Below are positions 1-3,000 of a DNA stretch of 20,498 bases, one piece after another. The position numbers are program-made. How positions within the stretch are numbered: position 1 is the first letter of the stretch; every line of letters starts with the position of its first letter. This DNA is from a virus (lineage: Duplodnaviria; Heunggongvirae; Uroviricota; Caudoviricetes): positions 1 through 20,498 of IMG/VR virus record IMGVR_UViG_2802429224_000006. One strand, 5' to 3'.

Positions 1-3000
1 CGACCAGCGACCAGCGACCAGCGACCAGCGACCAGCGACCAGCGACCAGCGACCAGCGACCAGCGACCAGCGACCAGCGACCAGCGACCAGCGACCAGCG
101 ACCAGCGACCAGCGACCAGTAAATCCAGAAAGACGGTAAAATCGGTTGAGCCGCAAATTTCCGATCTCGCGAACTCATGGCTTAAATCTTACGGGCTTGA
201 TTACAGGCTGGAGCAGGCACCACTTAACCGCGAGATAGATAACGCCCTGGACGCCTATTTTTCGAAAAATGGCGGTGCAGGTGGTAACCGTCCCGATGTA
301 AAACTCCTTATTCAGGACAAATACGGCAGGCAGTACCCCGTTCTCATCGAATACAAAGGCTATAAGGACAGGCTTATCCGGCTTGGCAGTAACGGTATCA
401 TCGAGAATAAAGATTCCAGAAAAGAATGGAACTTTAAAAACATTAATGGATATGCGGTTAATGGTGCAGTCCATTATGCCAACGCACTTCTCCAGTTTAC
501 CAACTACTCAGATATTATTGCGATCGGTATGACAGGCTGGTGCGATGATGATACAGGAGAGCTTCATCATGAAATTGGCGTGTGGTATGTATCAAAGAAT
601 AATTTTGGGGCTGGGCAGAAGGTTGGTGAATACACTGACTTATCGTTCCTTGCGGATAAAAATGTTGACGGATTTATCAACAAGATAAAGCTGCTTAATC
701 TGCCGCCTGAGGAGCTGGAAAAAATTAAGGCCAGCAAAGAGGAAGAGATAGACACTCGACTTTCTCGCCTGAACAACGATATTTATCAGGATGAAAAGGG
801 GCTTGGTGAAAGTGATCGTGTTTACCTTGTTGTGGCTACCGTGATTGCGACGTTGGGTATTCCTGACAAACTGGCACCCCTGGATAAAAAAGAACTTACT
901 TCATCAACGGAAGACGATTGGCGTGATGGCGATATTATTTTCAGGAAAATAAGAAACTTTTTACGACTAAAAGCTCTTCCTGAAACAAAAAGAGAAATGA
1001 TTTTGCGCACGCTGCAAAATACGCTGTTGACTGAAAACATTAACAAACCAGTCAATGGTGAAAGCCAGTTAAAGCGCGTGTTTGTTAAGGTTGTCGATGA
1101 CCTTGGGGAATACTACAAAATCGGGTTGACCACCGACTTTACGGGTAAGCTGTTTAATGAGATGTATCGCTGGCTTGGGTTTACGCAGGACAAGCTTAAT
1201 GATGTCGTCCTGACTCCACCCTACGTAGCCACATTACTGGCAAAACTTGCGCGGGTGAATAAAGATTCCTATGTATGGGATTTTGCTACCGGTTCAGCCG
1301 GATTGCTTGTGGCTGCAATGAACGAAATGCTCATTGACGCCAGAGAGAATATTCACTCACCCAACGAACTGCAACTCAAGGAGGCGAAAATCAAGGCAGA
1401 GCAGCTTCTTGGTATTGAGGTGTTACCCAGTATTTACATGCTAGCAATTCTGAACATGATCCTGATGGGGGATGGGAGCTCAAATATCCTCAATAAAGAC
1501 TCGCTGGCCGATTTTGACGGCAGATATGGCTTTGGGAGAACAGGGGAAAAATTCCCGGCCGACGCATTTATTCTCAATCCTCCGTATTCTGCTAAAGGCA
1601 ACGGCATGGTTTTCGTGCAGAAAGCTCTTTCGATGATGGATAAAGGCTATGCCGCAGTGATTATCCAGAGTTCAGCCGGGACAGGAAAAGCGACGGAGTA
1701 CAACAAAAAAATACTCAAAGAAAATACCTTACTGGCAAGCATCAAAATGCCTGCGGATCTATTTATTGGTAAATCAAGCGTTCAGACCTACATTTACGTT
1801 TTTCAGGTGAAAATTAAGCATAGCGCGAAACAGGCGGTTAAGTTCATCGATTTTTCCAATGATGGCTACATTCGCTCTAATCGCAAAAAGGCAAGAAGTA
1901 ACCTTGTTAACGCCGATCGTGCAAAAGAACGCTACCAGGAAGTGGTGGATCTGGTTCATTTCGGGGGAGGTTGCCTCAATATCCTTACGGAAGATGAATA
2001 TTTTGAAGGAACCATCGATCCTGATAGCGGTGAGGACTGGAATCAGACGAAGCCTGTGGATACCAGGCCAACACTGGATGATTTCAAAAAAACGGTGAGT
2101 GACTACCTTGCGTGGGAGGTGTCGCAATTACTGAAAAAACAAGGTGAAAACAATTCTGCGGGAAAGTAAACTCCCCGCTCAGCGATAAATTAAAAAGTGT
2201 TGAGTGGGGAGAATTCAGGATTGGCGATTTGTTCGATGTGAGCACTGGTTCGCTTATTTCCTCAGGGAGATTAAAACCTGGCAAAATTAAACGCGTTTCA
2301 GCAAAGAGCGAACAAAATGGCATCATCGGAGAATTTGATACGGAGTTTATGGATGATGCAAGGCATTATGAAAATTTCATAAGCGTTAATTTCTTTGGAG
2401 ATGCTTTTTATCATCCTTATTGTGCCAGCGTCGAAATGAAGGTACATGTTCTTACATTAAAATCAAATAAGTCTGGCTTTAACACAAAGTGCGGATTATA
2501 TATTACCAGTATGATTAATAAAACTTTAAAAGGACGCTTTAATTATGGTCAACAGTTATCTAGTTCCAAACTTAGGGATGGAGAATATTTCATAAAATTA
2601 CCGGTAAAAAATAATGCAATTGACTGGGATTTTATGGATAATTATATAGAAGAGCTGGAAGCGATCCATATAGAAGAGCTGGAAGCGTATTTAATGGTTA
2701 GCGGACTCGCGGACTCGCGGACTCGCGGACTCGCGGACTCGCGGACTCGCGGACTCGCGGACTCGCGGACTCGCGGACTGATAAGCTATGAGCTTACGCC
2801 GCAGGAATCAAATATTTTAGATAAAATTAAAAATGGCGGCGTTTCATGGGAAATGCTGCCATTTGATTATTTTTTTAGCCGCATAAAGCAAGGGAAACGG
2901 TTGAAAAAACAAGATCATATTAAAGGTGATATTCCTTTTGTTATGGCAGGTATAACGAATAATGGCGTTGCAAACTTTATATCAAATCCTCATGTGATTT

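Follow-up and report, generated by a model that had tools for sequence, protein, structure and literature searches.

We describe a hypermutable contingency repeat in a restriction-modification locus carried by a virus of the class Caudoviricetes, IMG/VR virus record IMGVR_UViG_2802429224_000006, positions 1 to 20,498 of which form the window analyzed here. The repeat, a simple sequence repeat (SSR) with an 8-bp unit, GCGGACTC, lies in the gene for the specificity subunit (S) of what motifs and predicted folds identify as a prophage-encoded Type IIB system, between the two target recognition domains (TRD1 and TRD2), and its length decides whether translation reads on into TRD2 or stops. By analogy with characterized enzymes, the tract most likely toggles the enzyme between two forms, one with a complete and one with a half recognition subunit, a type of switch known elsewhere and unusual in Escherichia coli. 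We assign this joint reading, contingency repeat and full/half switch together, a probability of roughly 70%. The phase variation is well supported by comparison of related sequences; the anatomy, the copy-number variation, and the effects on the reading frame are observed directly, and slippage, half-S activity, and any change of spacing are inferred.

The tract is a perfect array of period 8 at 2701-2779 (9.9 copies, 100% matches, score 158 in Tandem Repeats Finder, TRF) that a separate repeat search reproduced; at 79 bp, such an array is far beyond chance. A repeat search also returned two exact 20-nt copies (ATATAGAAGAGCTGGAAGCG) at 2644-2663 and 2668-2687, 24 bp apart, directly upstream. 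A first-pass annotation, made from the sequence alone, had described both repeats as a module at 2646-2779; both are real and the coordinates essentially right, the 24-bp repeat beginning at 2644. Translation in the S frame reads ...DNYIEELEAIHIEELEAYLMVSGL(ADSRTRGL)x3 ISYELTPQES... across the repeats. The AlphaFold2 (AF2) model of S has a mean predicted local distance difference test score (pLDDT) of 82 and a TRD1-helix-TRD2-helix plan, for which Foldseek returned matches to 1ydx, 1yf2, and the S subunits of EcoR124I and BsaXI. The order in the model is TRD1, helix 154-178, tract product 179-211, and TRD2, and the family alignment agrees, bearing out the earlier placement of the tract between the TRDs. 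The features of the S gene are as follows.

2148..3368, plus strand: S subunit reading frame (frame 3), stop codon at 3366-3368; Pfam Methylase_S, 5e-22
2199..2624, plus strand: TRD1, AF2 model residues ~12-153; 89% identity with E. coli prophage alleles
2625..2699, plus strand: central conserved helix (conserved region 1, CR1), residues 154-178 (DFMDNYIEELEAIHIEELEAYLMVS), from AF2 secondary structure
2644..2691, plus strand: 24-bp in-frame tandem repeat, 2 copies (IEELEAIH / IEELEAYL), within the central helix
2701..2779, plus strand: 8-bp SSR (GCGGACTC) x9.9, in frame here with 10 units and three ADSRTRGL octapeptides
2779..2791, plus strand: stop codons in both alternative frames directly past the tract, TGA 2779-2781 and TAA 2782-2784 in one frame and TGA 2789-2791 in the other
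2799..3233, plus strand: short helix (residues 212-222) and TRD2, from the AF2 model
3249..3359, plus strand: C-terminal conserved helix (CR2), residues 362-398, the partner helix, from the AF2 model

The repeat unit is not divisible by 3 and lies within the S reading frame, so that full-length S is read through only when the unit count n satisfies n mod 3 = 1 (4, 7, 10, 13, 19, and so on). At all other counts, a stop codon follows 1-4 codons past the tract and leaves TRD1, the central helix, and an octapeptide tail; natural truncated products terminate with ...ADSRTDKL or ...GLAD directly before the stop.

Copy number is not fixed but spans 4-27 units among relatives, the comparison that the first-pass annotation had proposed as a check. 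Viral-contig relatives with the same flanks as the window and other TRDs carry 7, 8, and 27 units; seven complete E. coli genomes carry 5, 7, 7, 17, 17, 19, and 24; and annotated proteins imply 4, 7, 9, 11, 13, 15, and 21, the truncated S proteins among those annotated implying 5, 9, 11, 15, and 21. Alleles with exactly the TRDs of the window have one, three, or four octapeptides, equivalent to 4, 10, or 13 units, and natural out-of-frame alleles have 5, 8, 9, 11, 15, 17, 21, 24, and 27 units. Two further predictions of the annotation are thus seen in natural alleles: three-unit steps add or remove an octapeptide (x1, x3, and x4 beside the TRDs of the window), and steps of one or two units shift the frame and yield a single-TRD S that ends right past the tract. 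We set aside Logan contigs with a 2.9-unit tract as a probable de Bruijn collapse. A scan of genome contigs with three SSR units retrieved only unrelated repeats, high-GC actinobacterial and other, and neither a metagenome scan with the right-flank pattern nor a search of a plasmid collection gave a match.

The annotation had further counted two independent SSR switches, and a second independent SSR does lie in the upstream gene, A, which encodes the restriction-modification (RM) subunit; with the 24-bp repeat, however, the locus has three variable arrays, not two.

1..119, plus strand: 7-bp SSR (CGACCAG/GACCAGC) x17 at the 5' coding end of the RM gene, from TRF; cut by the start of the window, which is also the contig start

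The frame-1 open reading frame (ORF) encodes RPATSDQ repeats that continue into the A protein. The window corresponds to the complete contig PTST01000049.1 (assembly GCA_002965365.1) and starts inside this array, where the assembly presumably broke. In relatives (e.g., L001 2781-2997, L002 2375-2997, and L052 1273-1832), the array has 3 to about 93 units, with all three length classes occurring, and is preceded by an AAGGA Shine-Dalgarno sequence and two ATG codons in different frames. When n mod 3 = 0, the RM protein starts MLPDQRPATS...; when n mod 3 = 1, it starts MILCCQTSDQRP...; and when n mod 3 = 2, the RM gene has no start codon, so this array would switch the whole enzyme on or off. 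Opposite the array, RefSeq places a "YXWGXW repeat-containing protein" or hypothetical proteins (L050 1109-1789, L051 380-1012, and L052 1262-1876, minus strand); these minus-strand ORFs look like annotation artifacts of the repeat. In E. coli 2015C-3121 (L051; 391-999 and 3164-3861), IS1A lies between RM and S, and long poly-C runs, apparently errors of assembly or polishing, break up the 7-bp array.

All three arrays can be compared in complete genomes. Strains OkiPb01692, OkiPb01696, and OkiPb01714 from Okinawa have 0-1 mismatches across ~9.7 kb of flank and differ in every array, with 7/24/19 units of the 8-bp repeat, 2/2/4 copies of the 24-bp repeat, and 30/23/23 units of the 7-bp repeat, respectively. 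Because strains this similar differ in all three, we regard the arrays as hypermutable contingency repeats. The states of the seven complete genomes, all of which have one allele of the locus, are listed here.

2012EL-2448: 8-bp repeat 17 units, S truncated; 24-bp repeat x2; 7-bp repeat ~93 units (30 + 63, interrupted); RM start ATG2, ON
2015C-3121: 8-bp repeat 17 units, S truncated; 24-bp repeat x2; 7-bp count blurred by assembly errors; IS1 between A and S
2018-166: 8-bp repeat 7 units, S full; 24-bp repeat x3; 7-bp repeat 80 units; no RM start, OFF
04-00955: 8-bp repeat 5 units, S truncated; 24-bp repeat x3; 7-bp repeat 16 units; RM start ATG1, ON
OkiPb01692: 8-bp repeat 7 units, S full; 24-bp repeat x2; 7-bp repeat 30 units; RM start ATG2, ON
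OkiPb01696: 8-bp repeat 24 units, S truncated; 24-bp repeat x2; 7-bp repeat 23 units; no RM start, OFF
OkiPb01714: 8-bp repeat 19 units, S full; 24-bp repeat x4; 7-bp repeat 23 units; no RM start, OFF

The first-pass annotation had taken the pair for a Type I hsdM/hsdS locus, and we rejected that assignment: the "M" protein is a nuclease-methyltransferase fusion, and hsdR, the gene for the ATP-dependent motor subunit, is missing. By its motifs and model, the RM protein consists of an N-terminal PD-(D/E)xK nuclease of ~190 residues, a helical connector, and an N6-adenine methyltransferase (DFATGSAG, NPPY).

1..2169, plus strand: RM (A) subunit gene, 5'-partial, stop codon at 2167-2169
295-297 and 349-357, plus strand: PD-(D/E)xK residues of RM in the N-terminal nuclease domain, D59 at the former and E77-Y-K79 at the latter

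Pfam matches are N6_Mtase (5e-21) and, weakly, VRR_NUC at the N terminus (3.5e-4), and 30 RM homologues share P58, D59, E77, Y78, and K79 (PD...ExK), DFATGSAG, and NPPY without exception. The AF2 model of RM (mean pLDDT 68, with a well-predicted N-terminal domain) aligns with the BsaXI RM subunit over 626-665 columns; with HsdM proteins, whose chains of 424-529 aa have no nuclease domain, it aligns over 422-560 columns, in the methyltransferase part only. We find no hsdR in the window, in which tRNAs, lysis genes, and terminase come after S, none in the E. coli prophage loci examined, and none in a Neisseria lactamica island, where A and S stand alone between housekeeping genes. The locus shares with Type I systems an S of the plan TRD1-CR1-TRD2-CR2, and lacks their separate HsdR and nuclease-free M. 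A nuclease and an N6-adenine methyltransferase predicted in one polypeptide, with a two-TRD S directly downstream, are the marks of Type IIB, and we classify the locus as a two-gene BcgI/BsaXI-like system (RM + S). Sequence searches of the PDB with the RM protein gave no match even at E = 10, so that the classification rests on motifs and fold; in NCBIfam, A has just sub-threshold hsdM and MAD2 matches and S has none.

The 24-bp repeat and the 8-bp tract differ in where their products lie. The 24-bp unit, IEELEAAH, reflects the AELEAERV duplication found family-wide (CR1 consensus FMESFIAELEAERxAELEAYL) and is present 2, 3, or 4 times in alleles whose TRDs are identical (P0091 x2, P0113 x3, and P0103 x4), varying also among L052-L056 (L054 x2 and L056 x4). 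Because its product lies in the modeled central helix and numbers 2-4 copies with the same TRDs, it is the 24-bp repeat rather than the 8-bp tract that corresponds to the TAEL repeat, whose copy number converts EcoR124I (N6) to EcoR124II (N7) (PMC3874165). In the family alignment, the octapeptide insertion sits between a conserved "GL" and the "DYxLT" helix and is absent from all family members outside the Escherichia prophage group; in the AF2 model, residues 179-211 have a pLDDT <50 and are predicted to be disordered, a low score to which the limited depth of the alignment there may contribute. This position past the helix, together with the predicted disorder, leads us to treat in-frame changes as changes of a flexible linker rather than of TRD spacing. 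On the same two grounds, we set aside as unlikely a coiled-coil extension formed by the SSR peptide.

The mechanism that we propose begins with slipped-strand mispairing, which would add or drop 8-bp units. When n mod 3 = 1, the two-TRD S would direct the nuclease-methyltransferase to an asymmetric bipartite site, and in-frame changes would only lengthen the linker. At any other n, the half-S would most likely dimerize via the helix and confer a palindromic TRD1-TRD1 specificity, as suggested by NgoAV, EcoR124I-delta50, EcoDXXI-deltaC, and engineered half-S proteins; at the least, out-of-frame counts would abolish the full-length specificity. The 24-bp repeat would serve as a separate in-frame length switch in the central helix and would be expected to alter the distance between half-sites. 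Truncated Type IC S subunits are reported to recognize palindromes (PMC3874165), and engineered half-S proteins and M-half-S fusions are active (PMC6158711). Natural half-S relatives (L041, P0252, and P0257) end at the truncation point of the tract, just past the central helix. L041 (3998-6550), a low-GC relative with 61% identity, has RM fused in frame to a single-TRD half-S in a chain of 850 aa, which P0252 and P0257 resemble; a second methyltransferase-like gene lies downstream of it.

Several points weigh against a full/half switch. Half-S homodimers have been demonstrated just for Type IC enzymes and one engineered Staphylococcus aureus system, and for no Type IIB enzyme; a specificity switch in an enzyme that bears its own nuclease risks self-restriction, with no alleviation mechanism evident; some copies of the locus are decaying, with IS1 between A and S in 2015C-3121 and a second frameshift of S in L027; and the copy-number argument is carried by the complete genomes, as short-read drafts may miscount long tracts. 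One alternative is plain ON/OFF control, in which the truncated S is inactive, recognition, and with it restriction and modification, is off in 2/3 of the length classes, and no second specificity arises. The frame analysis fits this equally well, no Type IIB half-S activity has ever been shown, and the truncated product has a disordered tail of up to about 70 residues. That the RM gene already has an ON/OFF tract of its own cuts both ways, agreeing with control of this kind and leaving a second switch to duplicate the first. We nevertheless consider plain ON/OFF control unlikely, given the activity of the engineered half-S and M-half-S proteins and the natural half-S relatives that end at the same position.

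The spacing effect that the first-pass annotation had foreseen, with three-unit (8-residue) changes altering the recognition gap as TAEL does in EcoR124I/II, has only a slender chance of being correct. The length of the unit equals that of the neighboring helical repeat, and in-frame alleles with 1, 2, 3, 4, and 6 octapeptides share the same TRDs; however, ADSRTRGL lies past the end of the central helix in a segment predicted to be disordered and found in no other family members, and six copies (48 residues) are unmatched by a partner helix fixed at 37 residues. A neutral microsatellite in a decaying prophage moron, slipping without a selected function, is also very unlikely. Some loci do have IS1 or additional frameshifts, or have both genes OFF, and S is ON in ~5/11 well-assembled alleles against the 1/3 expected, which is not a clear enrichment. 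On the other side, at least 4 TRD1/TRD2 combinations retain the same tract and flanks, stops stand directly past the tract in both alternative frames, RM keeps all of its catalytic residues, and three arrays in one two-gene locus are hard to call an accident in E. coli. An assembly or sequencing artifact is scarcely credible: the window, a draft contig, is broken off within the 7-bp tract, the Logan tract is probably collapsed, and one PacBio assembly has poly-C inside the 7-bp tract, but the 79-bp tract is shorter than a read, and perfect arrays of differing length with identical flanks recur in seven complete genomes and several independent drafts.

A separate question is how S is expressed at all. 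Its frame is open from 2148 and has no ATG, GTG, or TTG before TTG 2229, upstream of which the conserved N-terminal peptide VNSPLSDKLKSVEWGEFR is encoded; homologues have the N terminus MNASLNEKL at exactly the position of VNSPLSDKL in the window, with an ATG that lies within an ATGA overlap with the RM stop. Two elements at the junction suggest a candidate -1 frameshift.

2160..2166, plus strand: G_GGA_AAG heptamer, in phase with the A frame and directly 5' of the A stop; candidate -1 site
2171..2211, plus strand: 14-bp stem-loop, 4 nt past the heptamer; -25.6 kcal/mol, z = -4.4 (RNA fold)

The RM frame ends GCG GGA AAG TAA, and a -1 shift would give GGG AAA GTA AAC..., which is the S frame. 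Heptamers of the form X_XXY_YYZ occur in five other junction types as A_AAA_AAG (twice) or G_GGA_AAA, always with S in the -1 frame, and the N. lactamica junction reads G_GGA_AAG TAG with an open, homologous -1 frame; the RM-terminal GK is invariant across genera. Equivalent hairpins are found in two other junction types, and folding the alignment yields 14 pairs, of which 4 show compensatory changes. In L041, P0252, P0256, and P0257, RM is naturally fused in frame to S or half-S, and these fusions join at the same point, e.g., ...RLGKINASLNKKL... in P0256. From these sequence features, we place programmed -1 frameshifting into an RM-S fusion at somewhat under even odds; the product would carry the junction peptide ...NSAGKVNSPLSDK.... 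Alternatively, the hairpin could mediate translational coupling to a noncanonical start, ATT 2220: its 3' arm has GGGGAG, a possible Shine-Dalgarno sequence, 8 nt before that codon, and the N terminus of the NCBI-annotated proteins, MGDLF..., implies a start there. Somewhat doubtful, in our estimate, is the full picture in which S is made solely as a -1 fusion to part of the RM, so that one mRNA yields RM and RM-S in a manner suited to an (RM)2S assembly and the tract toggles between a fused full S (AloI-like) and a fused half-S (HaeIV-like or IIG-like, dimerizing). If this were true, three hypermutable repeats would determine both the architecture and the specificity of a recoded restriction enzyme carried by the prophage. 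BcgI-like S genes of Helicobacter pylori also lack a start codon, which suggests that the question of expression is general.

Contingency loci built on simple repeats are classic in Neisseria, Haemophilus, Helicobacter, and Campylobacter. For E. coli, a review of phase variation lists switches by inversion and methylation only, none of them an SSR (PMC11868660). The principle of a phase-variable S in a BcgI-like system is already known from H. pylori, where the S genes HP1471 and JHP1364 of the systems HP1471/HP1472 and JHP1364/JHP1365 (Hpy99XXII) have a phase-variable poly-G (PMC3936762). As in the window, an RM fusion is paired there with an S in which SSR length decides read-through, and S follows the RM stop without a usable start, which was read as a defect in that case (PMC3936762). 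The H. pylori repeats are homopolymeric and chromosomal, whereas here an 8-bp unit reaches 27 copies in a prophage; neither a helix repeat nor an SSR in the RM gene has been reported for H. pylori. Among Type I systems, the survey of Atack et al. (2019), which covers Type I genes only and whose main text is without mention of Escherichia, reports SSRs between the hsdS TRDs in 7.8% of REBASE Type I genes, with NgoAV of Neisseria gonorrhoeae (Type IC) as the one tested case (PMC7383803). NgoAV and the surveyed hsdS genes resemble the present locus in having an SSR between the TRDs that yields a full or a TRD1-only S, the truncated form of NgoAV having palindromic specificity (PMC7383803); they differ in that they belong to Type I systems with HsdR and HsdM, whereas the partner here is a nuclease-methyltransferase fusion.

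Likenesses also extend to the other parts of the locus. As in EcoR124I/EcoR124II and EcoDXXI, natural alleles with the same TRDs differ in a short in-frame repeat of the central S helix, which here is 24 bp (8 residues) in 2, 3, or 4 copies beside a frameshifting SSR, in contrast to 12 bp (4 residues) in EcoR124I/II, and may affect the recognition gap. The (RM)2S enzymes BcgI and BsaXI share an N-terminal nuclease, a helical connector, a gamma-type N6-adenine methyltransferase, a separate S of the plan TRD1-CR1-TRD2-CR2, and the lack of a motor (PMC3592470, PMC11997821); our proteins have no detectable sequence similarity to solved chains, fold similarity only, and the RM, at 682 residues, is shorter than that of BsaXI, at 916. 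If the -1 frameshift occurs, the RM-S or RM-half-S chain would resemble AloI, PpiI, TstI, HaeIV, and engineered M-S or M-half-S proteins (PMC3874165, PMC4027205, PMC6158711); unlike single-chain Type IIB/IIG enzymes, this fusion would arise by recoding rather than in one frame and would coexist with free RM. Our literature search found no paper on this RM-S locus, and queries with the repeat-unit strings returned primer noise only; a methylome paper on Shiga toxin-producing E. coli (STEC) O111 was set aside, as it concerns a different enzyme.

Distinctive here are the octanucleotide unit, the combination of a frameshifting SSR with an in-frame helix repeat, both variable, the third array in RM, the prophage setting next to stx, and the E. 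coli host. Three independently hypervariable arrays would govern, in one locus, enzyme on/off, full versus half S, and helix length. If the enzyme is active, a lysogen population would contain differing restriction and methylation types side by side, with a bearing on phage spread, DNA uptake by STEC, and the reading of methylomes. The series of 2, 3, and 4 helix copies and the near-isogenic Okinawa strains are well suited to asking how helix length sets the gap in Type IIB enzymes.

Identical or near-identical S proteins occur in E. coli and in cryptic-clade Escherichia. Among 5,426 complete E. coli genomes, none has the TRD2 of the window; identical copies are present in draft Escherichia assemblies. 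Relatives at 89% DNA identity lie in lambdoid prophages, where the Q antiterminator and hok immediately precede them and a tRNA cluster follows. In the Stx2b prophage of E. coli 04-00955 (L053, 1681-7180), the order is Q, hok, RM, S, tRNA-Ile/Arg/Arg, and stxA2b/stxB2b; the RM-S pair holds a late-operon moron position shared with toxin genes. In the window, S is followed by tRNA-Thr, tRNA-Gly, holins, endolysin, and terminase.

3722-3875: tRNA-Thr(TGT) and tRNA-Gly(TCC), directly 3' of S; E. coli relatives have tRNA-Ile/Arg/Arg there

Between the lysis genes and the small terminase, an ORF of 267 aa (6472-7275) has no PHROG match. Farther downstream, a 138-bp tandem repeat at 12804-13312 (3.7 copies, 78% identity) lies in an ORF of 538 aa (11821-13437), in the head protease/scaffold region of a phage-21-like head module.

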